Positions 11,351 through 63,955 of a stretch of 64,000 bases of DNA are shown here, one piece after another. The stretch is taken from IMG/VR virus record IMGVR_UViG_3300032233_002382, positions 1 to 64,000 of that record, one strand, 5' to 3'. Source of the stretch: a virus (taxonomy: Duplodnaviria > Caudoviricetes). The translations under genes and the position numbers were made by a program. How positions within the stretch are numbered: position 1 is the stretch's first letter; every line of letters begins with the position of its first letter. The notes under the pieces were generated by a model that saw only the letters and a program-made list of their open reading frames with translations, was not told where the DNA came from and did no database searches.

Positions 11351-11938
11351 CTAAGCGGATAGTTTAAGTAAATAGCCCGAACGGTAGACTGGATGGTCGG
11401 GAGACCCGCTAGATACCGCTTTTTCAGATGAATCGGGAAAAAGAGGGACCTTCACCGGTTTCCCGGTCTTCGGATCTTTCATCATTACCGGTTTTCCAAT
11501 CTGAGGATCGAAAAGTTCGATGTTATATCCGTCCTTCAGCATTCGATACCAAGAAGCGATCGAATCTGGAGTCTGATGGATGTCAGAATAGACGGGACCG
11601 AGAGTCAATGCGAAGTCATACATCGTGCGACCGAGTTGCTTACCGCGATAACTTCTTTTGGTCGTTATATACTTAACTTGATGTCCGTCGCGATATTTCT
11701 CAAGATCCAGTTTTCCGACCGAAATTAACTTACCGTCTTTTTCGACGCAAAACGAGTAACTCCCGTATCTCTCGAGAATCTTATAACCGCCGAAGTCGAA
11801 CGTATGATGAGGCGGGAATTCGACGAAAAATTCATGAGATCGGTCGATTGCGGCGTCGTCGGACTCCTCGAACGGACCGACGTTAAAGACCGAAGTCTTA
11901 GATCCAGAGATGCGGGAAGCGATTCGAGAAAATCTCAT
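11351..11938 (-). CDS. GNAT-like protein with N-terminal IASRI motif
   Basis: YRGKQLGRTMY acetyl-CoA loop-like; paralogous YSD..QTP motif; starts MRFSRIASRISG. Confidence 0.55.
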   Translation of the reverse strand: MRFSRIASRISGSKTSVFNVGPFEESDDAAIDRSHEFFVEFPPHHTFDFGGYKILERYGSYSFCVEKDGKLISVGKLDLEKYRDGHQVKYITTKRSYRGKQLGRTMYDFALTLGPVYSDIHQTPDSIASWYRMLKDGYNIELFDPQIGKPVMMKDPKTGKPVKVPLFPDSSEKAVSSGSPDHPVYRSGYLLKLSA

Positions 11939-11980
11939 ATCGGTAATCGAAATCGCAAGCCTACGACAGTCGATCGACGG

Positions 11981-12532
11981 TTAGGTTATCTTGATGAGAA
12001 GATTGTTGTCGTCATAAAGATCGATTGAAGGATCTGCGCTCTTAATCTCTTTAGCCGAATGGTCCGGGACGAGCTCGGTGTCGAGAAGGTTTCCCGAATC
12101 CGGATCGAAAATCCGTATTTTATAACCGGACTGAAGCATTCGGTAACAAAGACTGCGGGCGTCTCGAGATTGGAAAGCGTCCGAATATACGGGTCCGAGG
12201 GAAAGGGCGAAGTCGTGAAACTTAAACCCGTAGTTCAGACCTTTCTTCCGGAATTCGGGCTTCATGTCGACCGTAGCAACCATGCGACCGTCTCGATATG
12301 GCTTTAAATCCATGTAACCGACCGGAATTGAGTCTAGGACGAAGACGTAAATACGACCCTTCTTAAGGATCTCGAATTCTCCAAATTTAAAGGTCTGGTC
12401 GGGGGAGTTCGGGGGACTGACCGACTCGAAATAAGAATCGACCGAGTGTTCAGAATTCGCGGGAAGCGAATCGAATCGGGAAAGAGCTATTCGATTCGAA
12501 ATGTTCAGTAACCTGACTCGAAGACGGTTCAT
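11981..12532 (-). CDS. GNAT-like protein, paralog of 11351..11938
   Basis: FRKKGL...DFALSLGPVYSDAFQS; start at the ATGA overlap. Confidence 0.55.
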   Translation of the reverse strand: MNRLRVRLLNISNRIALSRFDSLPANSEHSVDSYFESVSPPNSPDQTFKFGEFEILKKGRIYVFVLDSIPVGYMDLKPYRDGRMVATVDMKPEFRKKGLNYGFKFHDFALSLGPVYSDAFQSRDARSLCYRMLQSGYKIRIFDPDSGNLLDTELVPDHSAKEIKSADPSIDLYDDNNLLIKIT

Positions 12533-13191
12533 TTCTCCCACCACTCCTTGGGATTCATGGGCTTCGGATGCTCATGGAGAGGCTCTGGATCCTGCCAGCC
12601 CTTCGAAATGTCGTAATAAGGTTCGAAACGACCTTCACCGCCCTTCATGTTCGGGTGATCGATGATGAGCTCTTCGATGTCAAAGAGATGCTTAGAAGGT
12701 TCGTCCAAGATGCCATCGAAGATCTTTCGGAAGTTCGTGCAAACGCCGTCGACGCACATCCCGCGATAACCGCCTGCTATATAGACGGTCCCGAGCTGAT
12801 CACCTCGTTCGACCGTCTCGATGATATAATTGCCGATCTCATTATTGAAAGCCAGTTCGCCTAAGTGGATCTTAGGAGACGTAGGACCGTAACCGCGTCG
12901 CTCGCTGGTCGGATCTGCAACGTGAGTCATATCAAGGATGATTTCGAAGCCTTGGGATTCGAGTTCGGATTTAATTTCTTCATATCCTTCTTTCCCGACA
13001 AATAACTTGTAAAGAAGGGCGAATTTGCGGTCAAGATTCAGACCCGAGGTCTTTGACTTTAAGGTGTCGAAATATTTCGACCGGACGTCCGGATACATAT
13101 ACCACCCGATACCTAACATGTCGGGATGGACGAGTATGAGAATATTCTTCTCGGTTCCGGCGATACGAGAAGCGATTCGAGTGAGTCTCAC
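12529..13191 (-). CDS. Hypothetical protein with N-terminal IASRIA motif
   Basis: Starts MRLTRIASRIAG; 220 aa. Confidence 0.65.
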   Translation of the reverse strand: MRLTRIASRIAGTEKNILILVHPDMLGIGWYMYPDVRSKYFDTLKSKTSGLNLDRKFALLYKLFVGKEGYEEIKSELESQGFEIILDMTHVADPTSERRGYGPTSPKIHLGELAFNNEIGNYIIETVERGDQLGTVYIAGGYRGMCVDGVCTNFRKIFDGILDEPSKHLFDIEELIIDHPNMKGGEGRFEPYYDISKGWQDPEPLHEHPKPMNPKEWWEK

Positions 13192-13200
13192 GAGATACTC

Positions 13201-13719
13201 CTAAGAGGCCTTCAGAATCACGTGGTGTGGTTCGGAATCGACGTAAAGATCTATCGAATCGGACTTTAACTCCCGACCATCAACGTAGACTTTGTGTTCT
13301 TCACCAGATTCAGTATCGACTGCTATAACATCGAACAAACCAGACAGTATAACCCAGAGCTTCCTAGCTTCGGGCGTCTGAGTCTTATCACTATAAAGCG
13401 GTTTCTTAGATATGATGTACTGATACAAAATGGTCGACAGCTTCTGGCCAGAGAATTCGGGTTTCATGGCGGTCGTTGAGACCTGATATCCGTCCTTAAA
13501 AGAATTAGCTGACAAATAAGCTGCAGGCTTTCCGTCCACCATCAAAATATGTTTGGTGCCGTCCTCAATTATCTCGTGTCCCATAAATGAATGTGAACGG
13601 GGATTTTTCTTCAGCACCTCCGAATAAGCCCAGTCAACCATCTCGTCTTGAGAATGGACTCCCTTTAAGGTCGGCCTTCGGCTAATAGCGATTCGAGATG
13701 CAATACCTAGTACATCCAT
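13201..13719 (-). CDS. GNAT-like protein, third paralog
   Basis: FSGQKLSTILY...LYSDKTQTPEARKLW; start refined to MDVLGIASRIA. Confidence 0.55.
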   Translation of the reverse strand: MDVLGIASRIAISRRPTLKGVHSQDEMVDWAYSEVLKKNPRSHSFMGHEIIEDGTKHILMVDGKPAAYLSANSFKDGYQVSTTAMKPEFSGQKLSTILYQYIISKKPLYSDKTQTPEARKLWVILSGLFDVIAVDTESGEEHKVYVDGRELKSDSIDLYVDSEPHHVILKAS

Positions 13720-13913
13720 AACGAACCCGGAAAACACAAGGCTTAAATAGTATACTGGTTCCGGGGGACCCAAAAAGTTCTAAGAAAGGTCCTTTCTCTC
13801 CAAAAAAGGTTTTTTAAAATACCTACACACCTGAAAATTGGCACCCCAGAGATTTTCGAAATACCTATAATACTCAAAAACGGGACCGCCCACGCGAATA
13901 TCGGATGACCATC

Positions 13914-14225
13914 GGAAATCGGCGGGGACCCCCGTTTTCCCCAGACACGCGTCTCCCCCACCAAGAAGGGTGGGCGGAAATCGGGGGTATGGATACGTAT
14001 AGGGGGGATATAGGGGGATAGGTATACCCCCGGCGGAGATCGGCCTGCGCCCCCGTCTCTTGGGTGTGGCGGCGCTGCTCTTGCGCCGCTGCGCTGGGGT
14101 GGGCGGGGGCGGGGCCGGAAATCGGCTGCCCCGCCCGTCTCAGGGGTGGGCGGCGGCGGGGTGGTCCCGTGGCGCAGCCCCCGGCTCGACCGGAAGTCGA
14201 GCGACCCGCCCGTCGGCGGGATGCG
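13914..14225 (+). promoter_or_regulatory. Four tandem GGARR-N14-CGTY promoter-like motifs
   Basis: Motifs begin at 13914, 14035, 14117 and 14192, upstream of 14276. Confidence 0.7.
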
Positions 14226-14275
14226 AGGGCGGCGCGGCGCCCCGCAATCACCAAGCCGCGCAGGAGCCGACCAGC

Positions 14276-14695
14276 ATGAGCAACGTGAACACGATCGTCA
14301 GCAAGCTCGCCACCATCATCCCGCCCGTCATCGCCGCCCCGCCCAGCTACCCGTTCGTGGGCAAGAACGCGGTCAAGGCGACCCTCCTCGCGAACACCGA
14401 GGTGCAGCACCTCACCCTGCAGCTCATGTACCTGCTGCAGACCGACGAGGAGCAGAAGGCCAAGGACACGGAGGTCCGCAACCGCTGCGGGTTCATGTCG
14501 TCCGACGCCTACACCGGCTCGCTCCTCGCGGAGAAGCTGCTGCTGGGCATGGAGCTGGAGGGCGAGGAGGTGGCCAAGGCGGAGCGCATCGCCACCAAGT
14601 ACAGCAAGCAGCTCTCGCAGCAGCTCGTCCGCCACGCCTGCGCGCAGGACGCCCGCCTCGCGGCCTACGCCATCACCTTCTCCATCAAGGTCTAG
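14276..14695 (+). CDS. Hypothetical protein, family A copy 1 (YHLQT.DEQ..NR.GFMSSDA..KY.KQ)
   Basis: GGAGCCGACC RBS; high GC3; paralogs at 21581 and 35990. Confidence 0.85.
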   Translation: MSNVNTIVSKLATIIPPVIAAPPSYPFVGKNAVKATLLANTEVQHLTLQLMYLLQTDEEQKAKDTEVRNRCGFMSSDAYTGSLLAEKLLLGMELEGEEVAKAERIATKYSKQLSQQLVRHACAQDARLAAYAITFSIKV

Positions 14696-14782
14696 TCGGT
14701 CGGGCGGTCCCCGCCCCCACCCCTGCGAGGGGGTGGGGGCGGTCGCGTTTTCGGGTGGAAAATCATTTCCAAGGAGGCGACG

Positions 14783-14941
14783 ATGCTGCGGCACTTCGTG
14801 TTCGGGTTCGGCGGGCTGTGCGTTCTGGGTGTGTGCTTCATCGGTGGTTCGCAGACCACCCTGCCGCTCGTGGCGGGTGGATTCCTCGAGGGGGCGGTCA
14901 TGGGCTGGATCGCCTACGCGGTCACCCGCCCCGCCACCTAA
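14783..14941 (+). CDS. Small membrane protein (52 aa, not in ORF track)
   Basis: AAGGAGG RBS; MLRHFVFGFGGLCVLGVCFIGG...; followed by a hairpin. Confidence 0.7.
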   Translation: MLRHFVFGFGGLCVLGVCFIGGSQTTLPLVAGGFLEGAVMGWIAYAVTRPAT

Positions 14942-15030
14942 GGCAGGTCAGTCCATTTGAGGCCGGATCCCATCGCGGGATCCGGCCTCATTCGTATATC
15001 GGGTGAACCCATTTAACGGAGGTATGGCAT

Positions 15031-15210
15031 ATGTTTCTGAAGTACGTGGCAGCATTTCTCGCAGTCATGGCCATGGGGGTCGTCCTCAGCGCCTTCTGGA
15101 TCTACGCGTACCTCTTGATCGAGAATGCCCACCTAGGTCTCATCAAGGGAGTGACCCGTTCGACGCGGGAATGGCTCTGGACGTTCCGGCTCCGCAAGTC
15201 CATGTACTGA
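15031..15210 (+). CDS. Small membrane protein (59 aa, not in ORF track)
   Basis: GGAGG RBS; MFLKYVAAFLAVMAMGVVLSAFWIYAYLL... Confidence 0.6.
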   Translation: MFLKYVAAFLAVMAMGVVLSAFWIYAYLLIENAHLGLIKGVTRSTREWLWTFRLRKSMY

Positions 15211-15229
15211 GATATACTACACATTTCGA

Positions 15230-15270
15230 AGATATCCCCCACCCATCATCGAGATGGGTGGGGGATATCT
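15230..15270. terminator. Inverted repeat, 18-bp stem
   Basis: AGATATCCCCCACCCATC-ATCGA-GATGGGTGGGGGATATCT. Confidence 0.6.
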
Positions 15271-16139
15271 GTTTCGGGCGGAAGGTGTGAACGAAACGGA
15301 ACCGGAAGCTCGATCGGTCCGTCGTCTGTTGGGTGTGGGGCGACGCTGCAGCGTTCGTTCCCGATATACTGGTGGGGTCGCGCCAGTATATGGCATAGGG
15401 TAGTGCGACCCATCCCCTCACTCCGCCGAGTGATGGCACTCAGCCCAAGGGAGCGTGAGCCGTCTGGCGAGTGGCAGCTCGTGAGCGGGATAGTCTGCCG
15501 GAAGGGTGGGTAGGGGGATATGAAACCAAACCCCCGGCCATATGGCTAAAGTCTGGTCGATATATTGTCGGCCTACCCCACCAGGACGCCCAAGGCCGCA
15601 AATGGGGCGCCAATATGAAGACAGGGCCGCCGACCCTGAACCCGAACCAAGGAGGCGCAAGTGCAGCTGGCTTTCGAGATCTTCACGATCGGCGTGACTT
15701 CGTTCGCTTTCGGGCAGGCCGCATCGTTCGTGATCGACGTCGTTCGAGATAGGTAGTATATCGAACGAACCCCTGGCAGGGGTTCGGCGTGGAATGCCAG
15801 TTCGGAAGGGAGCCCTCGCGCTTGAGGGGCGTACCTTGGTCGGCTCCGCCCTTAGGGTGGTTGGCTCCCGACCCCGAATTCCGGCGAAACCACCCGAACC
15901 CCGCCAGGGGTTATTTCGTTGTCGGGTATCTATATCAAAATAAATCTTCAAAGTATACCCTATACCTCAAAGGGGACCGGAGATCGCGCCTCGCGCCCGT
16001 CATATGGATGTGGGGCGGCAGACCTACGGCGCCTGGGCGGATGCCAGCCAGGGGGTAGGGACCCGTGATAGACCATTGTGCGGCGGGATGGAAATCCTGG
16101 GCGATGGGAGCAATTAACTGCAATAAAGGAGCCGACCAA

Positions 16140-16622: not shown

Positions 16623-16739
16623 TCCGAAAGGCGGTCGAGCCCCAGTCCCGTCGACGGGACTGGGGCTCGTGCTGTCTCTGGGTTAAGAGACCTATTTCCT
16701 TTGACTTCCTTTGCATTCAAAGGCATCGAGCACGGCACG

Positions 16740-17390: not shown

Positions 17391-17394
17391 GTAT

Positions 17395-17838
17395 GTGGCG
17401 GACTTTATTAGAGTGGCTCGAAGTGTCTTGAATGTTCGGTATGCTTCGGGTATTTTAATTTATTCGAATAGCACCGGACGATTCCTTCTAATTCAAAGAA
17501 GCCAATCGGTCCCAGATCCTTTAACTTGGGGTCCGGTTTCTGGATATATTGAGAAGGGAGAAGATCCTCTTACGGCGGTTCGAAGGGAAGCATTTGAAGA
17601 AATCGGTCTAAGTCGTATAGAGATAGATCCGATCCCTCTTTACACGTTTGAGAATGAATCGCTGAAATTCTTTAATTTCATGGGGAACGTTGATAGGGAA
17701 TTCGATCCGGTACTCGATTCTGAATCGGTGGACTTCGTCTGGACTACTATGGACTCTCTACCGGCTCCCTTACACCCCAATTTCCAGATATTCGTAGATA
17801 GTTTCATAAACCCCTTGTTATCCTTAAAACGGGGGTGA
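17395..17838 (+). CDS. NUDIX hydrolase
   Basis: Nudix box GYIEKGEDPLTAVRREAFEEIG. Confidence 0.88.
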   Translation: MADFIRVARSVLNVRYASGILIYSNSTGRFLLIQRSQSVPDPLTWGPVSGYIEKGEDPLTAVRREAFEEIGLSRIEIDPIPLYTFENESLKFFNFMGNVDREFDPVLDSESVDFVWTTMDSLPAPLHPNFQIFVDSFINPLLSLKRG

Positions 17839-17842
17839 CCCA

Positions 17843-18061
17843 ATGCCTGGATTCGTAAAGACACCTGCTGACGAAAAGCTTTGGTCGAAAGCCAAAAGAC
17901 AAGCGAAGAAGGGTCTTGGCCTTAAGAAAACCCCGAAATCTGGGGAGGCAAAGGACTCGTTTTATGCTTACGCTAATAAAGTCTTTCATAACCTAAAGAA
18001 GCAGAAGAAAAAGAGGAAGGCCTCTTTAATTTCTATAGCTTCTCGGATCTCTAACCCTTAA
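17843..18061 (+). CDS. Small basic protein
   Basis: DEKLWSKAKRQAKK; Lys-rich; ends ISIASRISNP. Confidence 0.7.
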   Translation: MPGFVKTPADEKLWSKAKRQAKKGLGLKKTPKSGEAKDSFYAYANKVFHNLKKQKKKRKASLISIASRISNP

Positions 18062-18072
18062 AGGAGTCTGCA

Positions 18073-18654: not shown

Positions 18655-18716
18655 TTGGAACCTCCTACACCCTCTGAACATAAAAGCTTTCAGGTTTTTG
18701 TTCAGTCACCTGTAGT

Positions 18717-19424
18717 ATGAACATACATAAAATAGCATCCCATATTTCCAGTTCAGGTTACATTAACTTCGACCGAATAAAGGACATGGCGAAGTCGCTC
18801 CTGGAGACGAAATTCCCAGGCAGTGGCAACGAAGCGGATTTGACCGACTTTATTGACCGAATGGTCAATAAAGCCAAGGGACTCGTGAAGCCTCATAGTT
18901 TCGAGTGGGACCGGTCTGGAACAACATATGAAGATGTCCTGGAGTCTATAATCGCTGAGTCTTTTGAGAAAGCCAAGAAGTTTTCCGGAAAGCCTACAGA
19001 TGTTGATTCCTACAAGAATATGATTGTGTACACGGTGGGGAGAGCGGCCAGGGACGTGTTGGGTCCCTTGAAGGAAATGCAGCGGTGGGAAAGACCGAAG
19101 CCTATGACAGACAAAGAAAGAAAAGATTTAGCGCATAAAATCAGATATGTTTTAAAAGCAATATTTTCTTCGAACGTTTCCGATGGTGAAATGGATGGTT
19201 TGTTGAATAGTTTATCAAATCTATCGAACGAGGAAAATATCGAAGATAGTTTGATTTCTCTGGTCGAGTATATCAAACGAAAACCAGAATCAGTTCAAAC
19301 TAAGGAAGAATTCCTCGAGGCTTTGAAGTCGAGAGTGGAAAGCCACCCTCAAAGAGAAAGAGTAAAATCAGCACTAAGGACAGAAGAGAAACTTTCCGAT
19401 TATTTCAAACGATCTGAAGAATAG
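18717..19424 (+). CDS. Hypothetical protein with N-terminal IASHIS motif
   Basis: Starts MNIHKIASHISS; AT-rich. Confidence 0.7.
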   Translation: MNIHKIASHISSSGYINFDRIKDMAKSLLETKFPGSGNEADLTDFIDRMVNKAKGLVKPHSFEWDRSGTTYEDVLESIIAESFEKAKKFSGKPTDVDSYKNMIVYTVGRAARDVLGPLKEMQRWERPKPMTDKERKDLAHKIRYVLKAIFSSNVSDGEMDGLLNSLSNLSNEENIEDSLISLVEYIKRKPESVQTKEEFLEALKSRVESHPQRERVKSALRTEEKLSDYFKRSEE

Positions 19425-23709: not shown

Positions 23710-23934
23710 GATTGAGGGGAGGTCCCATTCGGGACCTCCCCTCATGTCGTTCAAAATGGCGGAGGATATCCGATTCGAACGGATGGTACCTTTCGATACG
23801 CCTGTTTAGTAGACAGGTGCCTTAGACCACTCGGCCAATCCTCCAGATCTTAAACTATACACCCCAAAGCAGATCGGAAATCGGTCGTTCGGTTCGTCTT
23901 TTTGGTGGGCGGTGGTCGCCCGATTGGAGGTCCG

Positions 23935-27686: not shown

Positions 27687-27935
27687 TTAAACGTCGTATG
27701 TTGATGTTAGTTTAATGTTCTTTGCAGCTTTCTCGAGTGCTTTAGCTGTGGCCTTTTCGGCCTGCTCTTCTAGTTCTTCATGGCGTTCTTGGTCGAGTGC
27801 TTCCGTCTTTTTCTTTAATTCTTCGTGATAATCTGCGTCGAGATCTTCCATCTGCTTCTCGACTTGCTTCTTCACCTTATCCATGACCTTCTCTACTTCG
27901 GTCAGGGCGAGGTGAAACCTTTTAACGTCACTCAT
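27687..27935 (-). CDS. Small coiled-coil protein
   Basis: E/K-rich heptads; coupled to the upstream gene. Confidence 0.65.
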   Translation of the reverse strand: MSDVKRFHLALTEVEKVMDKVKKQVEKQMEDLDADYHEELKKKTEALDQERHEELEEQAEKATAKALEKAAKNIKLTSTYDV

Positions 27936-28309
27936 TAGTGCGACCCGTGCTCAGCAGGCTTCTCTGCGCTCTTCTCCATCTCGGCAAGGAGAGCGGAGTG
28001 GAAAGTCTCATTACCGGTGCACATCTCGCCATACTCGGCCATCTTCTTAGCCATCTTACCACAATGATCGGCTGCCTCAGCGTAGTTGTGCTGCTTCATG
28101 CAGGTCTTCATCTGCTCTTCGCAGGTTTTAACCTCAGACCAGCACTCCTGAGCCTTAGCGGCCCAAGCAGCGTACTGCTCGTCCGATTGAACGGCCTTCG
28201 CGATAATCCGTCGAAGGTCAGCAACCACAAGCTCCTTGGATGGATTGGTAGAAGCGTTGAGTTTAGAAGCAACGCGGCGAAGTTCGGCTGATAACTGGCT
28301 AGGGGTCAT
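27935..28309 (-). CDS. Protein with N-terminal PSxLSxxLRRIA domain
   Basis: MTPSQLSAELRRVASKLNASTNPSKELVVADLRRI; AAGGAG RBS. Confidence 0.8.
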   Translation of the reverse strand: MTPSQLSAELRRVASKLNASTNPSKELVVADLRRIIAKAVQSDEQYAAWAAKAQECWSEVKTCEEQMKTCMKQHNYAEAADHCGKMAKKMAEYGEMCTGNETFHSALLAEMEKSAEKPAEHGSH

Positions 28310-31874: not shown

Positions 31875-32141
31875 TCAAACTCGTGAAGTCGGGACTTGGT
31901 TCTCTATCTTTTCTTTGAGTCCAGTGTCGGCAATTCCGTTCAGTAGTTTCAGCCACTCGGATGTTGATAGTGTAAAAGTGACCGAAATCATATCATGGCA
32001 GCCAATGCTGTGTCCGCACATCTCGCAAAATCCGTCTTGTGTAGGCGAATAATATCTGCAGGACTGCGGTTGCCTGTTCGGGTTGCAATTGTCATGATCT
32101 AACGACGCGACTCTTGATGCTATATGACTAATTTTCGACAT
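31875..32141 (-). CDS. Small Cys-containing protein with N-terminal IASRVA motif
   Basis: MSKISHIASRVAS; C..Y...FCEMCGH. Confidence 0.65.
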   Translation of the reverse strand: MSKISHIASRVASLDHDNCNPNRQPQSCRYYSPTQDGFCEMCGHSIGCHDMISVTFTLSTSEWLKLLNGIADTGLKEKIENQVPTSRV

Positions 32142-35353: not shown

Positions 35354-35815
35354 ATGACCCCATCTGAACTGTCAGCTGCACTTCGCAAAATCGCCGCTAA
35401 GATCGACGCCTCTAAGAATCCGTCCCGAGAGCTCGTTATTTCAGACATCCAAAGAGTAGCTTCGAGACTGGTTACAGCGGCTTGGCAACCCCACAAAGCT
35501 AAGAATGTAGAAGAAGTAGACATGAGTAAGCTCCCAAGGCAGCTTTTAACCGGTACCACCATGGGAGACATAGTTCGTGGTGTTCTAAAGCACATGAAGG
35601 ACGAACAGCCTGTTAGAATGTCTCTTTCGGGCAAGGGTCCTCTTGGGACTGACATTTCAGTCGACATCGACGACGGTCAGATCACCATTAAGGTGCTTAA
35701 AGCTGAAAAGGATATGAAAGCTCCGACGGATGATTCGGTAGCTTTATCAGCTTCCATGCCTCTCAAGGATTGGGTCAAGGAAAATAAAGCCGCTATCGAA
35801 AAAGAAAAGCGGTAG
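35354..35815 (+). CDS. Protein with N-terminal PSxLSxxLRRIA domain
   Basis: MTPSELSAALRKIAAKIDASKNPSRELVISDIQRVASRL; AAGGAG RBS. Confidence 0.8.
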   Translation: MTPSELSAALRKIAAKIDASKNPSRELVISDIQRVASRLVTAAWQPHKAKNVEEVDMSKLPRQLLTGTTMGDIVRGVLKHMKDEQPVRMSLSGKGPLGTDISVDIDDGQITIKVLKAEKDMKAPTDDSVALSASMPLKDWVKENKAAIEKEKR

Positions 35816-40606: not shown

Positions 40607-41374
40607 CTAAAGACCGTGAGTAATGAGACCGTTCTCAACGGTAAGGATGTCGTGAACTTCATGACCTTCCCGAGTGGCCACGGCCTCCACAGCCATCGTG
40701 AAAGCATCGATTGGTCTTAAACTATTAAATTCATCCGGACTAAACATCTGAGCACTTTCCGGCGGATCGAACGTCTGTCTTGACCCACCACGTCCGGCTG
40801 ACACCACACTGACTCTAGTCTTCATTCCTCCACAGTCGATCGTACCTTCCACGTTGCTCGCACTTTTTTCGCCCAGGAAATCACACCTGTGGAGAGTTAT
40901 AGTGCATGAAGGACCGAGCTCAGTCGGTCCTATATCGACAGGCTTATTTAAGACGTTGACTTGCCCACCGACAGCAGCTACCAATTTCCTAATATCCTTC
41001 AAAACTAATTCTTTCGAGGGACTCTTAGATTTTTCGATCCCCGCCGCGATGCGGCGGAGTTCCTGACTAAGATCTGACGGTTTCATTCGACTGGCCTTTC
41101 TGGGTTTTTGTGAACCCTTGAGAAATGTTCCGACGAGTTTCGCGATCTCACCGAAGTGCTTATCGCTGAGCTTCTGCTTCTCGATTCCGGAAAGGACGCG
41201 ACCGTAGTGGGCGGCCTTCTGCATTATCGAGTCGTCCATCGGGACCGTGACGCCGCCCTTCTCGATCGCTCCGAGCGCCCCACATAACATCGCGTGCTCT
41301 CTGGATTTCGGGTCCTCGGCGGCTTCTGCGACTCGCTTCGGGTCGCTAAGTTCAGATAAGGATGGCTTCGACAT
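40607..41374 (-). CDS. Protein with internal PSxLSxxLRRIA domain
   Basis: MKPSDLSQELRRIAAGIEKSKSPSKELVLKDIRKL at mid-protein. Confidence 0.7.
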   Translation of the reverse strand: MSKPSLSELSDPKRVAEAAEDPKSREHAMLCGALGAIEKGGVTVPMDDSIMQKAAHYGRVLSGIEKQKLSDKHFGEIAKLVGTFLKGSQKPRKASRMKPSDLSQELRRIAAGIEKSKSPSKELVLKDIRKLVAAVGGQVNVLNKPVDIGPTELGPSCTITLHRCDFLGEKSASNVEGTIDCGGMKTRVSVVSAGRGGSRQTFDPPESAQMFSPDEFNSLRPIDAFTMAVEAVATREGHEVHDILTVENGLITHGL

Positions 41375-55621: not shown

Positions 55622-55698
55622 TGGTAGGTCCCCGGTGACTTGAACACCGAACCCCCTGATTATGAGTCAGGCGCTCTAACCTGTTGAGCTAGGGACCC
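55622..55698 (-). tRNA. tRNA with CAT anticodon, probably Ile2 (lysidine type)
   Basis: GGGTCCC TA GCTC...CCTGA CTCATAA TCAGG...TTCAAGT...GGGACCT A CCA; TilS encoded in the window. Confidence 0.85.
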
Positions 55699-55740
55699 AA
55701 ACTTCTACTTGTCGAACTTTACATCTGAGGAATTTCCGTT

Positions 55741-56079
55741 CTACTCATCATCCTCTTCATACTCGTCGTCTTCATCCTCTTCTTCTTCGATCAAGTCGTC
55801 TTCCGTATAACTATCGGCGAAACATTCATCACAAATCCGTCCATCCTCGACGACTTTTGCCTTCTTCGCCTTCGCTAATCCCTTGAATGCCTTGTCGCAG
55901 ATGGCGCAGTGCGAGCAAGTCTCACAGAGCTTCTTCCCGATTGACGCTTCAGCATCACAGAGCGCACACTCTTCAGGTGCTATCGACTCGTCGTCTGTAT
56001 CGCTTCCTTCATCTTCATCTTCAAGACTCTCAAGTTCTTCGTCTCGGTCGATCTCTTCGGTTTCGCGCTTACGACCCAT
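55741..56079 (-). CDS. Highly acidic protein with two CxxC-CxxC units
   Basis: D/E-rich; CALC, CETC, CAIC, CDEC. Confidence 0.75.
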   Translation of the reverse strand: MGRKRETEEIDRDEELESLEDEDEGSDTDDESIAPEECALCDAEASIGKKLCETCSHCAICDKAFKGLAKAKKAKVVEDGRICDECFADSYTEDDLIEEEEDEDDEYEEDDE

Positions 56080-56083
56080 ATGG

Positions 56084-56296
56084 TCACCTCGTTTGGACGT
56101 CCCGAGCCATAGAAATCGGAAAATAAGTGTTGATCAAAAGACCCTTATCTTCTCGGCTCAACGTTACCGTCATCAGATCCGGATCGTAAGTCACCAAGTG
56201 ACCAAAGGCACGGCGACCATCAGACAGCTGGACGTCCACGTTTTTACCCACGAGCTTCGCAAGACCTTGAGGAGTCTGCCATTCACCGTTCTGCAT
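56084..56296 (-). CDS. Sm/LSm-like (Hfq-fold) protein
   Basis: LAKLVGKNVDVQLSDGRRAFGHLVTYDPDLMTVTL matches the Sm1 pattern. Confidence 0.65.
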   Translation of the reverse strand: MQNGEWQTPQGLAKLVGKNVDVQLSDGRRAFGHLVTYDPDLMTVTLSREDKGLLINTYFPISMARDVQTR

Positions 56297-56340
56297 TTAA
56301 ATCCCCTTTAGGGGTTAGAAGTGAGTCATGCTCGTTTAAA

Positions 56341-58706
56341 TCACGAGCCATTGATTTTACTTACAATGATCTCTTCGCAGGTTCCCGTATGTCTTAAATC
56401 GCCTTTTACGATACGATCAGGTTCTGGCGTAGATCCATCATGAACAACTTCGGTAACTCCGCAGTTCAGGCATTTCCACAAGTTATAACGAGGCGGGGGT
56501 CTTTTGGTTCGGTTCACCCAATCATGAGGCATGAACTTGCTCCGCCTGCTTCTCCTCGCAGGTAAGCCACTTACCCCCATTACCCTGAACCAGCATCCCT
56601 GAATGCGGGCTCTGGTCCAGGTTAATCATCATCGTAGAACCACAATTGCGGCAATGGTACCGCTCCCAGTAATTGTCAGGGGAACTGTCCGTAATCGACC
56701 ATCGATGACCCATGTGAGCCTCCACGGACCGGACGAGCGGAGCGGACGACTTCCAGATTAGCTTCGATGAACACTCTCGGCTTGTTTCTCTTCGCAAGTC
56801 ATCGGCGGTCCGTTATGATAACTAGACACGAGCTCTTCCCCGTCAGGAGGTTCATGAATCTTATAGATTACTGATCCGCATGAAAGGCATTTATATCTGT
56901 AGTGTTCTTGGCTTGTTCGGCCTTGTCCTTCCCACTTCCATTTATGAGACATTCACGACTCCATCACGTTCTTCGCAACCGCCTCACTACAGGACATGTG
57001 AATTTTCTGAAATGGTATGTTCCCGTACCAGAATTTGTAATGAGGACTGGGCTTCTTTCTTTGATGCCATTCGTGATCACAATTCGTACATTTCCAATAC
57101 GAGCAAGCATTCGTCTCTATCCACACCCAACTATGCATCTTGGATGTTCTCCACCATTTTCTCTTTACAATTGAGCAGCTTTTTCCGGTCTTTCGATAAG
57201 GAGAGTCCTGTGGGCTTGGGCGGTGTAGGATCCATGTAGCTAGAAGCGCGAGAATCACAACGGGAGCAAATCCAGAAATGAGTTACCCTATCGTCCTCGG
57301 TAGGGCCCTCAAACCCTCGATAAACCCAGTCATGATTCGTGGACATCAGCGGCTTGAGCCTCCATACACGTCATGAACGTGGCGACGCGTACATGGTCTC
57401 TATATATCTCCGCACTCATAGGACTTGGAATGCCTTCCCGACATCGAGTGAGGCTATGACAGTTCTGACACTCCCACCATCCGGACTTCGCACCGGACTT
57501 AATGCTTGGATCAGTATAGCGCTTCCAGTTATGATTCATGTACTGACCTCACGGTCATTAGTTCTTGGATTTCTTCACATGAAACATCTTTAGCATCTCT
57601 AAAACTAAGCTTAAAATCTTCGCTAGGTTTCCCAGATTGCGTCCACTGGGAACCGCAGTTATTACAACGCCACAGGGTGTCCCACCCGCTATTCGTAAAA
57701 TTCAAGATCTTAGTGACTGGTAACCAGTTATGATTCATGGATCAGCCTAGCCTGAAGTTCTTCACAAGTCAATTGGCCGAGTCTGATACCAACTGAGACC
57801 AAGAGTACTGAATCGGGCGGTTCATCATCCATCTCCCCAATCCCCCATTCAAGGCACTTCTGACACCGGAATTCGAACTGTCCGAACTTATTCCGACCAT
57901 CATATTTCCACTCATGAGGCATGAAGGTTCCTGACCTGAATTTCTTCACATGTCATTTTGACGGTCTTGGTCGGGATCTTCATCTCTGGATCAGGGTCCG
58001 GTGCACTTTGATGGGTTCTGGTATAGCAACCGCATTTTTCGCAATGGAATGTAACCGTGGTCGAATGAGAGGGCCACTCGTGACACTGCCAATCATGAGG
58101 CATGTACTTCTCTCACAATATTGAGTTCCGACATTTCATTACACTGAAGGAACGCACCCGTCTGATAATCGAACACTTTCTCAGTCGGATCAGGCTTGCT
58201 AGCGTGGAACGACCAGTGATCGCACTTCTTGCACCACCAGTAACCGCCAAGTTCAATATATCTATGACGATTGGACCGATTCGGCGAGAAGAAGGTTCGA
58301 AACCAGTTCAACCATCCGTTTAGCTGAAGCTTCATCTCGGGTGTTACCTTCTATGAAGTGGCCATAACCTTGTAACGCATACTTCCAGATGGAATCCTTG
58401 CTCCAGACCGAGGCATTGCAACCATCATCACTTACATAGAAGAATCTACCAGAACCAGGATCATATTGCCATCTAGGATTCTTGAACATGATACACTTTC
58501 ATGAGATGGCAGTCATGGAAATCCAGTGTGAATCGGTTCGGATGCTCCAGTCGACAAGGCTGAAAGTATTTTACCCCATTATCCTCGGCCTGCTCGAACA
58601 AAACAGGTCGGCCGGGCGTCGGATAGACGTCCCCGACCCAGTAAGTTGCACAACTCCGACACATCCACACTCGATTCAGATTGGTTTTGATCCAGGTGTG
58701 CCTCAT
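56341..58706 (-). CDS. HxW-CxxC-C Zn-finger microprotein array, cluster 2 (11 members plus tagged 58262..58489)
   Basis: 56341..56532, 56522..56713, 56758..56952, 56953..57138, 57131..57346, 57330..57539, 57529..57738, 57728..57922, 57912..58103, 58093..58335, 58473..58706. Confidence 0.8.
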
Positions 58707-59185
58707 TAGACTCCCCCATACTTCTTCTCCATCTGGTCTAGCCACTTAAATAACGCGTCGTTTGGCTTACTGTAAGCGTAATAGTCCGTTTCGTGTTCAG
58801 GTGAACTCGGACTCGCGTGCTTCCACCGGCCAGGGAACTTGATGACCTCACCGTCATCATAAGTCTTCTCGTGTGGTTCCAAGATATATTCGACGGGCTC
58901 ATTGCAGACCGAGCACCAGGAGCCAATTAAATTCGACACATTCTCGATTTCCGAGGGAAGAATCTCGTTAAGCTCTTCAAGAGGCTGGACGGTTCCGAAT
59001 GGCGGACCGTTATCATAATGATATTCCTGAAAGACGAAGTGGCGACCGAATTTCTCTCGAATTCCATTGAATCCGTTTTCAGCTTTATTAAAGACACCGA
59101 ACTTTAAGTTCCTTGACGCGATGCGATATAAGACTCGATCCTTACAATCTTCTCGCTTGATGTATCCAGGCATGGTCCTACTCAT
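58706..59185 (-). CDS. Hypothetical protein
   Basis: 159 aa, WCSVC. Confidence 0.7.
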   Translation of the reverse strand: MSRTMPGYIKREDCKDRVLYRIASRNLKFGVFNKAENGFNGIREKFGRHFVFQEYHYDNGPPFGTVQPLEELNEILPSEIENVSNLIGSWCSVCNEPVEYILEPHEKTYDDGEVIKFPGRWKHASPSSPEHETDYYAYSKPNDALFKWLDQMEKKYGGV

Positions 59186-59683
59186 TCTGAAGATTTCGGA
59201 CCATCATCTGGTCACAGTCGTGGAAATTAGTAAACTGAATCTTAGCGGAACTTAATGGTCTGCAGCAATAATAAATGTCCATCCCATCCATCTCTTTTAT
59301 GCCTAGTCCAATTGTCATAGTTCGGTTCGGAAGGCGGTTACCAAGCCACTTCGTCTTACACTGGTTACAAATCCATGTCGAATGATATGCACTAAGTTCT
59401 TCCCATTTATGAGCTCGCATGCTCAAGCCTGATTAACATGCAAAGTCGCCATGAAACCGCAGTCGCGGAATTCACTTACATCGAACTGGTGTGGAACATG
59501 CATCCCAACTTCGTAGTAGGAAACGCCCCCAGTCTGAGAGACTGTTCCCTGCACATTCTTCACCGTGGTCGGGTAGCTCGATCCACGATACCTGGTTCCG
59601 CAATCCGAGCAAATGAACACACGAGAATGGATGCTGCCCTGTGATAAGTCGGGACCAGATTTCTTCCATCGGTGTTTCTTCAT
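59178..59683 (-). CDS. Two more Zn-finger family members (59423..59683, 59178..59426)
   Basis: HRW/HKW...CxxC...DC + tag; motif at 59745. Confidence 0.75.
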
Positions 59684-59758
59684 TATTCACCAACACGCCA
59701 GCGCGGCGGCCCCCATGATAGGAACGCGCCGCGCCGCTGATTTCCGTGTATGATTTAG

Positions 59759-59932
59759 CTATTCCGCCTGAGACGGTTTCTCAGGCCTCACCATACAAAA
59801 GCGGCAATTAGGATCTCTACACTGGGCCTCTAGCCACTTGTCGCACGGGACGCAATAGTATGCGTCATGTCGATCGTTCCGGATGACTTTGGGTTTTGCG
59901 CAACCGCATTCAGGATAGAATTTAGGCATCAT
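59759..59932 (-). CDS. Cys-rich 57-aa protein (not in ORF track)
   Basis: ...DAYYCVPCDKWLEAQCRDPNCRFCMVRPEKPS. Confidence 0.7.
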   Translation of the reverse strand: MMPKFYPECGCAKPKVIRNDRHDAYYCVPCDKWLEAQCRDPNCRFCMVRPEKPSQAE

Positions 59933-60793
59933 TATCATCCATTGGATCTGGGAGACCGCGAATCACCCACGCACACTCGTCGGCTCCGTGGGCGGTCAAA
60001 GACTCGTGTGGATGAGCGAGAGCCGACCGACATTTCATGGCCACAAGGTCGCTTGCCTGTGCTGCCGCATCCCGCATCGCTTTAACGCCTCGTTTGAAAG
60101 CTAACTTCTCATAGTCCTTGCGGAGAGCGATCATCTCGGACGTCATCTTATTCACGTCTTCTTGAGAGTACGTCAGATCTACGGGCTCTGCAAGAACTTC
60201 ATTGATTTTGTGCTCAAGTTCGCCAATGTATCGAACGCCCATATACTCACCAAGAACGAGACGGTTCGAAGCGATAACGCCCTGGGCTTCTTCAAGAGTT
60301 TCCCTTATCTTATCACTCATCTTGAACATTCCTCACTGACATGTATTCGCAGTCGTGGAAATTCCATTCTACGATATAGACACCAGCTCTTACATCTGGA
60401 ATTCTATGAAATTGCGACATCTCAGTACCCTGAAAATGCTTGGTGTAACACTGTCCCTTGCGAGGCTTTTCCATCCCGTAGGCGGTGGAATCACATTCAT
60501 TGCAAATCCAAAACAAATCACGCTCTGGAGCTTTTCTCCATTTGTGCGTTTTCATCCGATTTTGCCTCCAAGTAGGACTTCAGAAGATTGACATCTTGGA
60601 TTATCAAATCTATCTTCTTCTGATTCGGTGGCTTCCCGTACGAACCATCCTGGTGACACTGAATCTGGAATTCCTGCTCCCGAACCATATCACATACTAC
60701 CTTTCGATAGGCTTCCATCAGCTCATCGGGTGAGAATCGAACTGACTTATCGTACATGGCAAAATGAAGATAATTCTCAACGGTCGGCTTCAT
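59922..60793 (-). CDS. Three genes: 60518..60793, 60313..60555 (Zn-finger family, VRNVQDE), 59922..60329
   Basis: Motif at 60838. Confidence 0.7.
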
Positions 60794-60878
60794 GTGATCA
60801 AACCTCCACCGGAGGAACGAGCGGAACGTCGGATTTCCATATTTAGGTTTTTATATACTGTTACACCTGGAGGATATC

Positions 60879-61385
60879 ATGAAACCAACCGACCTATCGT
60901 CAGCTCTACGCCGCATCGCTTCGAAAATCGAAGCTTCAAAATCCCCAAGCCGAGAACTCGTACTCAAAGATTTGAATAGTTTGGTTCGGAAGATGGCTAT
61001 GGATGATGATTCTCAGGATGATAGTAGTCTTCCTACCGGCGTACATGAAGTCATATCTATGCCGAATGCCGAGTTCACTGTCACTATCGATTGTACGAGG
61101 GGGAGTTCTGGAGTCATAGGTGAGTGTACCATCCAGATACAATCTGAGTGGTCTGAAATCCCGTCTGTAGTTTCTGCTGTACAAAGTATTGATAGAGAAA
61201 TCAACAGTGCCACCACTGGTGAATATTGGGCTATGGTACCAGACAACTTGCCCAAGGCGGCTCGAAGCGCCACGGACGGTTGGATAACTGGATACCTTGT
61301 GTGGTGCTTAGAAAATGGGAAATTCGAAGGCCAACCTGATATCGGTCAGTTTATTTTCAAGTTTGACGTTCTTTTCGAAGGCTAA
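60879..61385 (+). CDS. Protein with N-terminal PSxLSxxLRRIA domain
   Basis: MKPTDLSSALRRIASKIEASKSPSRELVLKDL; GGAGG RBS. Confidence 0.8.
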   Translation: MKPTDLSSALRRIASKIEASKSPSRELVLKDLNSLVRKMAMDDDSQDDSSLPTGVHEVISMPNAEFTVTIDCTRGSSGVIGECTIQIQSEWSEIPSVVSAVQSIDREINSATTGEYWAMVPDNLPKAARSATDGWITGYLVWCLENGKFEGQPDIGQFIFKFDVLFEG

Positions 61386-61463
61386 TAACCGGCTAGATGA
61401 CGATCATGATTCCATTCACGAATCATGAGCCAAACTAAGCGAACCAAAGAATCTTCGATGTAT

Positions 61464-61521
61464 AAAAAGCCGGAGTGATAAGCGCACCAGACTGAAACTG
61501 GGCTTATCACTCCGGCTTTTT
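61464..61521. terminator. Bidirectional intrinsic terminator
   Basis: AAAAAGCCGGAGTGATAAGC...GCTTATCACTCCGGCTTTTT. Confidence 0.85.
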
Positions 61522-61539
61522 CTTTCCAGATCTTCATAT

Positions 61540-61617
61540 TGGCGCTCCTGGAGGGAGTCGAACCCCCGACCGTCGCCTTAGAAGGGCGCTGCTCGTATCC
61601 AGCTGAGCTACAGGAGC
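61540..61617 (-). tRNA. tRNA-Arg(TCT)
   Basis: GCTCCTG...CGCC CTTCTAA GGCG...TTCGACT...CAGGAGC G CCA. Confidence 0.92.
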
Positions 61618-61619
61618 AA

Positions 61620-61795
61620 ATATCCCATCAGGTCCGGTCGGCGTTGCAGCGCCGCCCTTCGCATACTGCAATATACCGCGCTTTCTCAAAGGCGCGCCTG
61701 ATGGAAAACGAGTCCCTGCCGGTCAATTCCGGTAGATTCACGGTGTTCAGCACACCGCCATTCTTTTACCGCCCTTAGCGGGCAGTCCAGGGAAA
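61620..61795 (-). ncRNA. Candidate structured RNA between tRNA-Lys and tRNA-Arg
   Basis: No ORF; nested stems CCATCAGG/CCTGATGG and TCCCTG/CAGGGA enclosing several hairpins. Confidence 0.4.
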
Positions 61796-61871
61796 TGGTG
61801 AGGACGGTGGGGTACGATCCCACAACCAACGGCTTAAAAGGCCATTGCTCTACCAATTGAGCTACGTCCCC
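61796..61871 (-). tRNA. tRNA-Lys(TTT) with non-canonical T-loop
   Basis: GGGGACG...ATGGC CTTTTAA GCCGT...GTGGG ATCGTAC CCCAC CGTCCTC A CCA. Confidence 0.9.
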
Positions 61872-62195
61872 GAAATCTGACTGATTTTACATTTAAAGTG
61901 TCGGCTCGCCCCATAACCCGACCGAATTGCCGAGTATTTTCCACCCGCTGCCGACCGATCCGCCTGAGGAAAGACGAACCCCCTGTGATTACGATTTTAG
62001 GAGTGGTAAATCGCGTGCGGCTCACCGCAAGCCGTTTTTATTTCTTGTTGGCTCGCCCCGTCGGGATTCCACTCCCGAACACCGCCGCTACCAACTTGTG
62101 CTTCCTGGAAAGGTTTAACAGGAAGCTTTGCCCCTGTGATCCGCTGAGAGGCGGTAGATGAATTCGCCTTCAGCTTGCGCTCACGCTCGCGTTTG
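61872..62195 (-). ncRNA. Candidate structured RNA of about 300 nt
   Basis: Several hairpins, internal repeats GGGGCGAGCC and TCACAGGGG, promoter-like motif at 62221. Confidence 0.45.
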
Positions 62196-62222
62196 CTTGA
62201 CGTTCGATTGTCGAGATTTCCG

Positions 62223-62444
62223 CTATCGCTTAGGCTTAATAGTCCCGATGATAGGCGATTCATCCTCGGTAGACCAGAGGGCATTCAGGGCTCTTTCCAG
62301 AGCCCTGGGATCTTCCATGACTTCTGACACGACTGCAACATTAGGGATGTCGAGCAAAAGTTCTTCATTGATTGGACCTGAATAAACGGGCTCGTTTCCA
62401 AGCGTAACGCGGAATTCTTTAGAAGCTGGAATTTTGATCTTCAT
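62223..62444 (-). CDS. Hypothetical protein
   Basis: GAGG RBS before MKIKIPAS. Confidence 0.6.
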   Translation of the reverse strand: MKIKIPASKEFRVTLGNEPVYSGPINEELLLDIPNVAVVSEVMEDPRALERALNALWSTEDESPIIGTIKPKR

Positions 62445-62456
62445 GGCGACCTCATC

Positions 62457-62532
62457 TGGAGCGGGAGACGGGATTCGAACCCGCGACATTCAGCTTGGAA
62501 GGCTGACGCTCTACCAACTGAGCTACTCCCGC
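62457..62532 (-). tRNA. tRNA-Gly(TCC)
   Basis: GCGGGAG...TCAGC CTTCCAA GCTGA...TTCGAAT...CTCCCGC T CCA. Confidence 0.95.
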
Positions 62533-62533
62533 A

Positions 62534-62620
62534 TGGTGGTTGGGGTTGGATTTGAACCAACGAAAGTCATTGACTGGCTGATTTACAGTCAGCTCCCTTT
62601 GGCCGCTCGGGCACCCAACC
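62534..62620 (-). tRNA. tRNA-Tyr(GTA)
   Basis: GGTTGGG...GCTGA CTGTAAA TCAGC, long variable arm, CCCAACC A CCA. Confidence 0.93.
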
Positions 62621-63040
62621 TTAAATATCTACTAGACCAGCGTGATGCTCAGCATGACAGTTATGGCAAAGCAAAGCACACTTATCTATTTCTTCTTTTA
62701 TTATTTCCCATCTTCTCGTTCGACCATCGTTCAATCCAAACGATTTTTGGGATTTGTCTTTATGGTGGAAGGTTAGTGCTGCTAACGATTTAGAATACCC
62801 ACAAATTTCACATTTCCCGCCTTTGTATTCTACTGATTTCCTCTTCATCTCTTGTCGATAAGCTGTAACAAGAGCCATATTCTTTTGTTTCTTATCGAAT
62901 CCTGGCAGTCCGGGGCCTGACTTCTGGTTCTTAAAAGGGCTGCACTTGAAACACTTTGTTCGGTTTGAAAGGGAGTGAGTCTTACCTTCAATCGTAATCA
63001 ACTTGGGTATTTCACCACCACAGGATTTGCAGCTCTTCAT
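62621..63040 (-). CDS. HNH endonuclease (homing-type) inside the tRNA cluster
   Basis: GGKCEICGY...LTFHH...CALLCHNCHAEHH; N-terminal CxxC pairs. Confidence 0.88.
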   Translation of the reverse strand: MKSCKSCGGEIPKLITIEGKTHSLSNRTKCFKCSPFKNQKSGPGLPGFDKKQKNMALVTAYRQEMKRKSVEYKGGKCEICGYSKSLAALTFHHKDKSQKSFGLNDGRTRRWEIIKEEIDKCALLCHNCHAEHHAGLVDI

Positions 63041-63083
63041 AACAGGGGCACGTTAATAGAGCTCTATTAACGTGCCCCTGTTA
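63040..63083. repeat. 44-bp perfect palindrome spanning the HNH 5-prime leader
   Basis: TAACAGGGGCACGTTAATAGAG|CTCTATTAACGTGCCCCTGTTA. Confidence 0.9.
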
Positions 63084-63085
63084 AT

Positions 63086-63161
63086 TGGCTCCTGGGGAGG
63101 GATTCGAACCCCCGACATGGCGGTTAACAGCCGCCCTCTCTGCCAGCTGAGATACCCAGGA
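63086..63161 (-). tRNA. tRNA-Asn(GTT)
   Basis: TCCTGGG...GGCGG CTGTTAA CCGCC...TTCGAAT...CCCAGGA G CCA. Confidence 0.93.
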
Positions 63162-63193
63162 GTGAAACTATCCAGGAGCGAACTAACTACACT

Positions 63194-63541
63194 TTACCAC
63201 GGCTCGTCTTCATAGAGATCGAAGAACGTGTTTTCGTAATCGTGACCGTCGTCGTGTTTTACGCTGCGCCGTGCTGTCGGCTCTTTCCGCATTCGCGCCG
63301 CGCCGCCGTCGACCGGCTCGGCCTCGATCGGTGCGACGGGCGCGGCCTTCTTGCGCTTTCGCGTCTTCGGCGTGTGCGGTCCGTGCGGTCCGTCGCGCAT
63401 CGGGAATTCGGTGATTCCGCCACACCAACAGCATTTATTCCCATGGAAACAGTGGGTATCATCCCGATCAAACCACCCTAGTCCACGCTTCTCATTGTCG
63501 ATCGATCTTTCCATACAATGATCAGGTCCCAAATTCGGCAT
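63194..63541 (-). CDS. Hypothetical protein with Cys/His motif
   Basis: HC...HCFHGNKCCWCG; start refined to MPNLGP. Confidence 0.6.
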   Translation of the reverse strand: MPNLGPDHCMERSIDNEKRGLGWFDRDDTHCFHGNKCCWCGGITEFPMRDGPHGPHTPKTRKRKKAAPVAPIEAEPVDGGAARMRKEPTARRSVKHDDGHDYENTFFDLYEDEPW

Positions 63542-63649
63542 GAATTTCCCTATTAAAAGAATGCCGCTTGTAGGAATTCGGCGCAGCGGCGGCACCGGAA
63601 TTGGGCATCCTACTTACCCGTATTGATAGAAATTACCGGACTCATAATT

Positions 63650-63955
63650 TCATTCTTCGGGAGGAATCGGCTTTAGTTCCAGGGGTGGACGGCGTTTATA
63701 CTTCCGAACCCAGAAGAATGGGGTAGTCTCAAGATCTGGGCCATCGAAATGATCCCACTTTATTATTCCAGCAGGCACGTTCCCATAACGTCTTGGCTTT
63801 GAACCGGGTATCGGTGCAAATTCCTTTGTAACTGTAACAACGGTGCCCTTCTTATTGATATCTAATTCGAGATAAACTCGATCTCCTACTTTGATATCAT
63901 CACCTAAATAAGGTTCCGAGGAGATACGAACCGCAATATTGTTGATGTCGATCAT
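63650..63955 (-). CDS. Small protein with N-terminal IAVRIS motif (SH3/KOW-like strand pattern)
   Basis: MIDINNIAVRISS; IKVGDRV...KGTVV. Confidence 0.7.
   Translation of the reverse strand: MIDINNIAVRISSEPYLGDDIKVGDRVYLELDINKKGTVVTVTKEFAPIPGSKPRRYGNVPAGIIKWDHFDGPDLETTPFFWVRKYKRRPPLELKPIPPEE

Follow-up and report, generated by a model that had tools for sequence, protein, structure and literature searches.

Do unrelated proteins of a huge bacteriophage share a terminal peptide that addresses them to a common destination? This question is raised by the first 64,000 nucleotides (64 kb; referred to as the window) of the 307,777-bp IMG/VR record IMGVR_UViG_3300032233_002382 (G000), in which a series of dissimilar proteins begins with, or ends on, a short peptide with the core RIASRI. 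The record has a GC content of 46%, is approximately 72% complete according to CheckV and represents an uncultivated huge myovirus, a jumbo phage of the Duplodnaviria/Caudoviricetes. A rough gene call comprising 399 open reading frames (ORFs) served as the G000 proteome, and three related genomes were taken as a whole for comparison, namely G001 (257 kb), G004 (377 kb) and G005 (393 kb). Two classes of elements were distinguished, with class A denoting the short terminal tag with the core RIASRI and class B a 40-residue hairpin domain with a related core. The data demonstrate that the tag exists, that it is under selection at the peptide level, that it prefers protein termini and is portable between protein bodies, and that it is conserved on head-module proteins throughout the clade. 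As to its role, we tentatively favour that the short terminal helix is an address tag for prohead or virion targeting resembling that of phage T4, a reading that we regard as plausible, if not quite probable.

The class A tag follows the consensus hydrophobic-x-[RK]-I-A-[SA]-[RK]-[IV]-[SA]-[GS] and is usually located 4-8 residues past Met1, sometimes at the C-terminus. All peptides cited in the original prediction were recovered, at positions 11938, 12532, 13191, 13719, 32141 and 63955 on the minus strand and at position 18717 on the plus strand, and the C-terminal copy does end the ORF 17843-18061. The string IAS[RKH][IV] occurs 14 times in the six-frame ORFs of G000, mostly a few residues past Met, and about a dozen proteins of G000 bear the short tag. 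When the search was confined to the first 20 residues, the pattern IA[SV][RH][IV][SA] was detected in nine of the 399 ORFs, or in ten if the gene starting at 32141 is included, the tag of which contains Val at the second hydrophobic position. Each of 200 within-protein shuffled proteomes contained no N-terminal match to this pattern, and the positional enrichment expected in the original prediction is thereby borne out. The core Ile-Ala begins at residue 6-8 in all canonical N-terminal members, and in an unbiased count no N-terminal 4-mers of the proteome were commoner than RIAS, IASR, ASRI and SRIA.

The codons specifying the tag copies vary synonymously, with Ser encoded by TCN or AGT and Arg by CGN or AGA, and with variable codons for Ile and Ala. 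It is therefore the peptide, rather than the mRNA, that is constrained, and a downstream box, a regulator site or any other element acting in the mRNA was excluded on this ground. A membrane-targeting helix was likewise judged unlikely, as the helix comprises only about two turns and exposes an apolar face of Ile, Ala and Ser.

The proteins downstream of the tags had been described as unrelated, which applies to most bearers: after removal of the tags, the class A bodies were mutually unrelated in BLAST comparisons, except for the genes 11351, 11981 and 13201, which form a trio of paralogues. None of the tagged bodies revealed a Pfam or PHROG match above the curated threshold, the only borderline hit being that of the paralogue trio to GNAT. 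The proteins of genes 84446 and 246215 had no reliable match in the Atlas feature search, and two tagged bodies that were searched in a collection of 5.8 billion proteins retrieved only themselves. The body encoded by gene 12529 provided no more than an isochorismatase-like lead (its feature score of 0.84 falls short of the range considered reliable). In a public gene call, the protein of 12529-13191 begins at residue 25 and consequently lacks the tag; a better fit for this gene is a GTG start, 7 nt downstream of AGGAG, which would keep the first strand of the isochorismatase-like fold.

Some features that had been ascribed to the tagged genes were not retained. The NUDIX hydrolase of the window had been listed as a weak member, but its N-terminus scores -6.7 bits on a position matrix of the tag. 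The tagged genes had also been called AT-richer; their mean GC content of 45.6% compares with a genome median of 45.3%, and they are AT-rich only relative to the window (50%). The upstream motif GGARR-N14-CGTY had been reported missing, and a search for GGARR-N14-CGTY-N7-TG within 120 nt upstream of the tagged genes indeed gave no hit for any of the 24 genes; this absence is not significant, however, since only 22 of the 399 genes have the motif. A k-mer search for a late promoter shared by the tagged and the structural genes yielded none, and no relevant paper was found in the literature for the motif strings.

The tag matrix was trained on G000 alone and then applied to G001, G004 and G005. 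In these three genomes, it matched 12 of 29,460 N-terminal sequence windows versus 5 of 255,798 internal ones, which corresponds to a difference of about 21-fold, and at least one of the "internal" matches follows an in-frame Met. Shuffled genomes gave a background of about 0.55 matches per genome, and each of the three related genomes contains four to six N-terminal tags and one C-terminal tag. Most of the tag bearers of G000 have no homologue in G001, G004 or G005, which possess tagged proteins of their own; the label therefore persists, whereas the proteins that carry it are replaced. The modular nature of the label, as originally proposed, thus stands, the tag being found on unrelated bodies, at either terminus and on non-orthologous proteins of related phages.

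The cores of the type LRR[IV]A[SA]K[IL] at 27935, 35354, 60879 and 40607 (at residue ~108 in the latter) had been taken for the same element. They are present, but belong to a separate domain of approximately 40 residues that is located at the N-terminus and follows the class B consensus M-[KTN]-P-S-x-L-S-x-x-L-R-R-I-A-S-x-I-D-x-S-K-N-P-S-R-x-L-V-x-x-D-L. Ten clear copies were identified in G000 (27935, 35354, 40607, 60879, 69735, 216602, 218198, 219197, 262511 and 282438), along with a probable divergent copy at 215769. In the case of 40607, the domain starts at an internal Met (nt 41086), which is possibly the true start. An AF2 model of the 60879 domain, calculated with 115 sequences, predicts a helical hairpin with helices at residues 3-19 and 25-44 (pLDDT 92.6).

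A profile built from nine copies was searched against 1.84 billion proteins and detected 1,024 representative clusters at E<=0.001, including 191 at E<=1e-10. Among the best 150 matches, the domain is located at the extreme N-terminus in 143, while 20 contain two copies and 11 a C-terminal copy, and the bodies of these 150 proteins fall into 133 unrelated groups. The domain corresponds to no Pfam family, the only match being DUF7433 below the threshold, and a Foldseek comparison of the hairpin with the PDB gave no hit at E<=0.001, the weaker matches being of a generic helix-loop-helix kind. On these searches, the class B hairpin is a domain family that has not been described before. Each of five related huge-phage records carries three to eight copies, and the phage contig that contains one examined match also encodes Mom and Volactin. 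The closest cultured relatives of G000, as deduced from the major head protein (MCP), are the Tunturiibacter phage Tunturi_5 (45% identity) and the Bacillus phage G (37%), the hosts of which belong to the Acidobacteriota and the Bacillus group; the domain was not found in either of them.

The short tag coincides with positions 11-20 of the class B profile, that is, with helix 1, and the N-termini of class A proteins align to this part of the profile with non-significant E-values, as expected for ten residues. On this alignment, the short tag reads as a relative of the hairpin domain that retains helix 1 only. This relationship might mean that the tag has no sorting role at all and is a remnant of helix 1 of the hairpin, or an N-terminal capping helix, that domain shuffling has distributed and that persists because it serves folding, stability or oligomerisation. 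The proteins of genes 13201 and 18717 run on from the tag into sequences resembling the hairpin loop and the second helix. Helical hairpins often self-associate, and the best, albeit non-significant, fold matches of class B were designed helix-loop-helix dimers, to which the two-copy proteins mentioned above may be added. A mere remnant would, however, neither hold a fixed distance to Met1 nor recur at C-termini, nor would it stay conserved in orthologues of 40-55% identity whose flanking residues vary. Moreover, the Ile face of helix 1 packs on helix 2 in the hairpin model, and helix 2 is absent from most class A proteins. We therefore consider a remnant of this kind quite unlikely.

A destination of the tagged proteins is suggested by the head module. 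A 370-amino acid protein encoded 8 kb upstream of the portal gene exhibits the pattern M-x3-8-[KR][IV]A-x-R[IV][AS] in 13 of 15 orthologues; past the tag, this family exhibits a Ser/Gly linker and the conserved block RTAGKIEF. The corresponding AF2 model, which is poor (pLDDT 51 overall and 35-46 in this region), places residues 4-14 in a helix that precedes an unstructured linker. An 83-amino acid protein adjoining the portal carries the motif at its C-terminal end in most relatives, but not in G000, and the 804-amino acid protein encoded directly after the portal contains a motif of the IA-x-R-[IVL] type near residue 75 in most orthologues, preceded by a very basic N-terminus. The head-maturation protease terminates in [WKM]KG[KR]I[AGS]S plus a hydrophobic residue and two to five further residues in 23 of 24 relatives (within the last 8-11 residues), and the strict form [KR]IAS is present in 22 of the 24; in G000 this tail reads WKGKIASIATI, and it lies outside the catalytic domain. 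A total of 116 protein families are kept by two or three of the relatives; terminal tags in at least two genomes were found for only three of these families, two of which flank the portal. A class B gene is located directly after the MCP gene in G000 (262511) and 1.8 kb after it in G001.

The head loading put forward in the original prediction thus receives indirect support from the motif kept on head-module proteins throughout the clade and from the [KR]IAS end of the protease. The tag would be a transferable docking peptide by means of which proteins of the huge-phage clade related to phage G join the assembling virion, with the scaffold core of the prohead as the most likely docking site, and its mode of action would resemble that of the capsid-targeting sequence (CTS) of T4 internal proteins and that of the targeting tails of prohead proteases. 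The label would be borne by core proteins of the head module and by a fast-changing accessory set of GNAT-like, isochorismatase-like and very acidic or very basic small proteins, which would ride in the head and might be delivered to the host along with the DNA. The prohead as destination, the nature of the receptor, any removal of the tag and the injection are inferred. When the N-terminal 40 residues of the 246215 protein were co-folded with the MCP and the scaffold candidate, no verdict was obtained, and this co-folding counts neither way. Pfam and PDB sequence searches gave no match for the protease, the scaffold candidate, the 804-amino acid protein and other head proteins, and the protease was thus assigned to no family of given cleavage specificity.

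Several points weigh against this reading. The protease tail shares only [KR]IAS and the hydrophobic residue with the tag, lacks the second basic residue and has a negative score on the tag matrix. The enrichment in the head module is based on few independent families. No conserved cleavage motif was found at a fixed distance after the class A tags or after 138 class B domains. Neither Tunturi_5 nor phage G has a clear tag, and no inference can therefore be transferred from them; the Tunturi_5 paper reports no virion proteome. Furthermore, the C-terminally tagged gene 215380 adjoins a probable tube gene, a trio of class B genes is located beside the sheath gene, and gene 233102 lies near the neck genes and an actin-like gene. 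Because several tagged genes are situated by tail and neck genes, the tagged proteins may go to the virion as a whole or to a different hub.

The latter alternative regards the tag as a general docking helix for a different phage hub, such as tail or neck assembly, the Volactin filament or a replication/assembly compartment, with the head-module bearers being merely some of its clients. In addition to the tagged genes in the tail and neck regions, the synteny of the tagged acidic protein, Volactin and sheath, which is kept in G004, is consistent with such a hub, and actin-like filaments are commonly bound by short amphipathic helices at protein termini, as in the ParR-ParM system. Volactin is present in the tag-bearing genomes G000, G004 and G005 and absent from the tag-less Tunturi_5 and phage G; this co-occurrence follows clade membership, however, and is not independent. 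The related tail of the protease and the conserved tagged families flanking the portal are left unexplained by another hub, which we consider unlikely. There is a slim chance that tag and hairpin together constitute a clade-wide sorting code that is read by a non-capsid hub, for instance the Volactin filament or another assembly compartment; if so, each genome would specify some 20 clients of a system that addresses proteins within the cell.

The translation signals of the two classes are different. Most class A genes have no Shine-Dalgarno site, whereas the class B genes and the MCP gene have strong ones, a contrast that hints at low-copy class A and abundant class B products. Gene 233102 contains the sequence TATAAT 7 nt in front of its ATG codon and may be leaderless. 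The scarcity of Shine-Dalgarno sites in class A, suggesting regulated proteins of low level, would also be compatible with the tag being the recognition site of an enzyme that processes phage proteins or times their removal; this enzyme might modify or cleave the proteins, or it might be an unfoldase for which the tag is a degron. No radical-SAM gene was found in the approximately 72% of the genome that the record represents, no enzyme gene consistently adjoins the dispersed tagged genes, and it is difficult to see why the head protease and conserved proteins of the head module should bear a degron; a recognition site of this type appears highly improbable.

Table 1. Tagged genes, class B genes and selected structural genes of G000. 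Positions refer to the record; the window ends at position 64,000.
Feature	Position	Strand	Remarks
Class A gene	11351..11938	-	195 aa; starts MRFSRIASRISG; body weakly GNAT-like (Acetyltransf_1, E=4.5e-4, borderline)
Degenerate class A tag	11981..12532	-	MNRLRVRLLNISNRIALS; 9.2 bits; paralogue of 11351 and 13201
Class A gene	12529..13191	-	220 aa; RLTRIASRIAG; GTG start behind AGGAG
Class A gene	13201..13719	-	172 aa; MDVLGIASRIAISRRPT; GNAT-like paralogue; tag runs into hairpin-loop-like SRRPT
NUDIX hydrolase, not a member	17395..17838	+	E=1.2e-15; tag matrix -6.7 bits
C-terminal tag	17843..18061	+	72 aa, very basic; ends in SLISIASRISNP, then stop; 14.0 bits
Class A gene	18717..19424	+	235 aa; MNIHKIASHISSS; no family match
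Class B gene	27935..28309	-	124 aa; N-terminal domain; core LRRVASKL; E=4.5e-23
Class A gene	31875..32141	-	88 aa; Cys/His-rich; MSKISHIASRVAS
Class B gene	35354..35815	+	153 aa; core LRKIAAKI
Class B domain in ORF	40607..41374	-	255 aa; domain at residues 97-140 (nt 40952-41086)
Class B gene	60879..61385	+	168 aa; core LRRIASKI; sequence used for folding
Class A gene	63650..63955	-	101 aa; MIDINNIAVRISSE
Tagged gene outside window	84446	+
Likely tag copy	86307
Tagged gene outside window	152343	-
Likely tag copy	153069
C-terminal tag copy outside window	215380-215769	-
Tail sheath protein	221929-227310		1,793 aa; phrog_2839 sheath domain only in last ~350 residues
Volactin-family actin-like gene	229153-230154		between neck and sheath genes
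Tagged gene outside window	233102	-	extremely acidic protein
Tagged gene outside window	246215	-
Major head protein (MCP)	263152-264039		phrog_2522, E=2e-46
Scaffold candidate	264983-266296		between protease and MCP
Head-maturation protease	266335-267888		517 aa; protease domain residues ~100-338; phrog_18299
Portal	272009-273781		phrog_16240
Weaker tag copy	279898-281010	-	370-aa protein

The structural genes listed in Table 1 differ in their conservation. The portal search retrieved 39 related IMG/VR loci with 65-81% identity, some of them on contigs of 240-436 kb, and the MCP family comprises 1,687 clusters at E<=1e-10, the best 120 of which are 85-96% identical. The MCP is thus exceptionally conserved, and a normal degree of divergence is seen in the portal, the scaffold candidate (36-51%) and the protease (38-63%). 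Members of the clade abound in public metagenomes. The scaffold candidate contains a low-complexity middle part rich in Ala, Pro and Glu and a conserved C-terminus of the form L-E-x-L-W-[DE]-R-P, which is likely its coat-binding end. Genes for tRNAs specific for Met, Arg, Lys, Gly, Tyr and Asn are located within 55622-63161, and one for Ser at 23757; immediately upstream of the 63650-63955 gene, the sequence resembles the 3' terminus of a further tRNA gene that crosses the right edge of the window. The commonest C-terminal 4-mers of the whole genome are TCEE and CEEI, and a run of small CxxC proteins at 259032-260264 has LTCEEI-like tails, which are unrelated to the IASRI tag.

Address peptides of phage heads are known from other systems. 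The CTS of T4 internal proteins was reportedly described by Mullaney and Black in 1996. The proteins IPI, IPII, IPIII and Alt reach the prohead core by means of an N-terminal CTS of 10-20 residues (PMC7411985). In common with this system, the class A tag is a short N-terminal peptide of about ten residues on unrelated proteins, including enzymes, of a large myovirus, is portable between bodies and is encoded by genes scattered outside the head module. In contrast, the consensus x-R-I-A-S-R-I-A-G shares no positions with the T4 sequence MKTYQEFIAE in a direct comparison, no Glu-type cleavage site follows the tag, and the C-terminal use and the 40-residue domain form are peculiar to the present phages; removal by the prohead protease, as in T4, and packaging and injection are predictions for the tag. 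By analogy, the tag would resemble a T4-type CTS in its manner of working without being a sequence relative.

The prohead protease gp4 of HK97 possesses a C-terminal targeting tail. For the protease gp245 of phage SPN3US, a C-terminal propeptide has been proposed to direct the enzyme into the prohead (PMC7411985). The protease of G000 resembles both in its conserved extreme C-terminus outside the catalytic domain, here with a [KR]IAS core; unlike the present one, the tails of HK97 and SPN3US have not been reported to be common to a cargo family, and the protease tail of G000 is a variant of the tag and not identical to it. In the P1 protein DarB, the first 30 residues suffice for encapsidation and residues 6-10 are the critical part (PMC9024508). 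The tag core occupies similar positions, from residue 5-8 onwards; P1, however, has one known client of this signal and a stepwise Dar assembly, whereas a dozen or more clients per genome are predicted here from their sequences.

Two further systems provide partial parallels. The cargo-loading peptides of encapsulins are short terminal peptides of diverse cargo proteins that are bound by the inner face of a shell with the HK97 fold. The tag likewise occurs at either terminus of diverse proteins, but it has no GSL-type consensus, the tagged genes are dispersed over the genome instead of adjoining the shell gene, and the shell is a phage capsid with portal, scaffold and protease. The scaffolding protein of P22 carries a helix-loop-helix coat-binding domain at its C-terminus. 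The class B hairpin is comparable in its two helices, its length of about 40 residues and its conserved basic positions, and might likewise attach a protein to a capsid component, but differs from it as an N-terminal module on more than 130 unrelated bodies, and no significant match in fold or sequence was found. As judged by these comparisons, what sets the putative address tag apart from the known cases is the use of both termini, the occurrence as a folded 40-residue domain and the core shared with the protease tail.

Should the tag serve to load the virion, the set of packaged and possibly injected proteins of a very abundant clade of huge phages could be read from sequence, and the GNAT-like and isochorismatase-like enzymes among its bearers would act on the host at infection. 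The related motif on the head protease would then point to one receptor for both the enzyme and the cargo, which would provide a concrete handle for finding this receptor. The tag would also be a small portable device for loading foreign proteins into large capsids.

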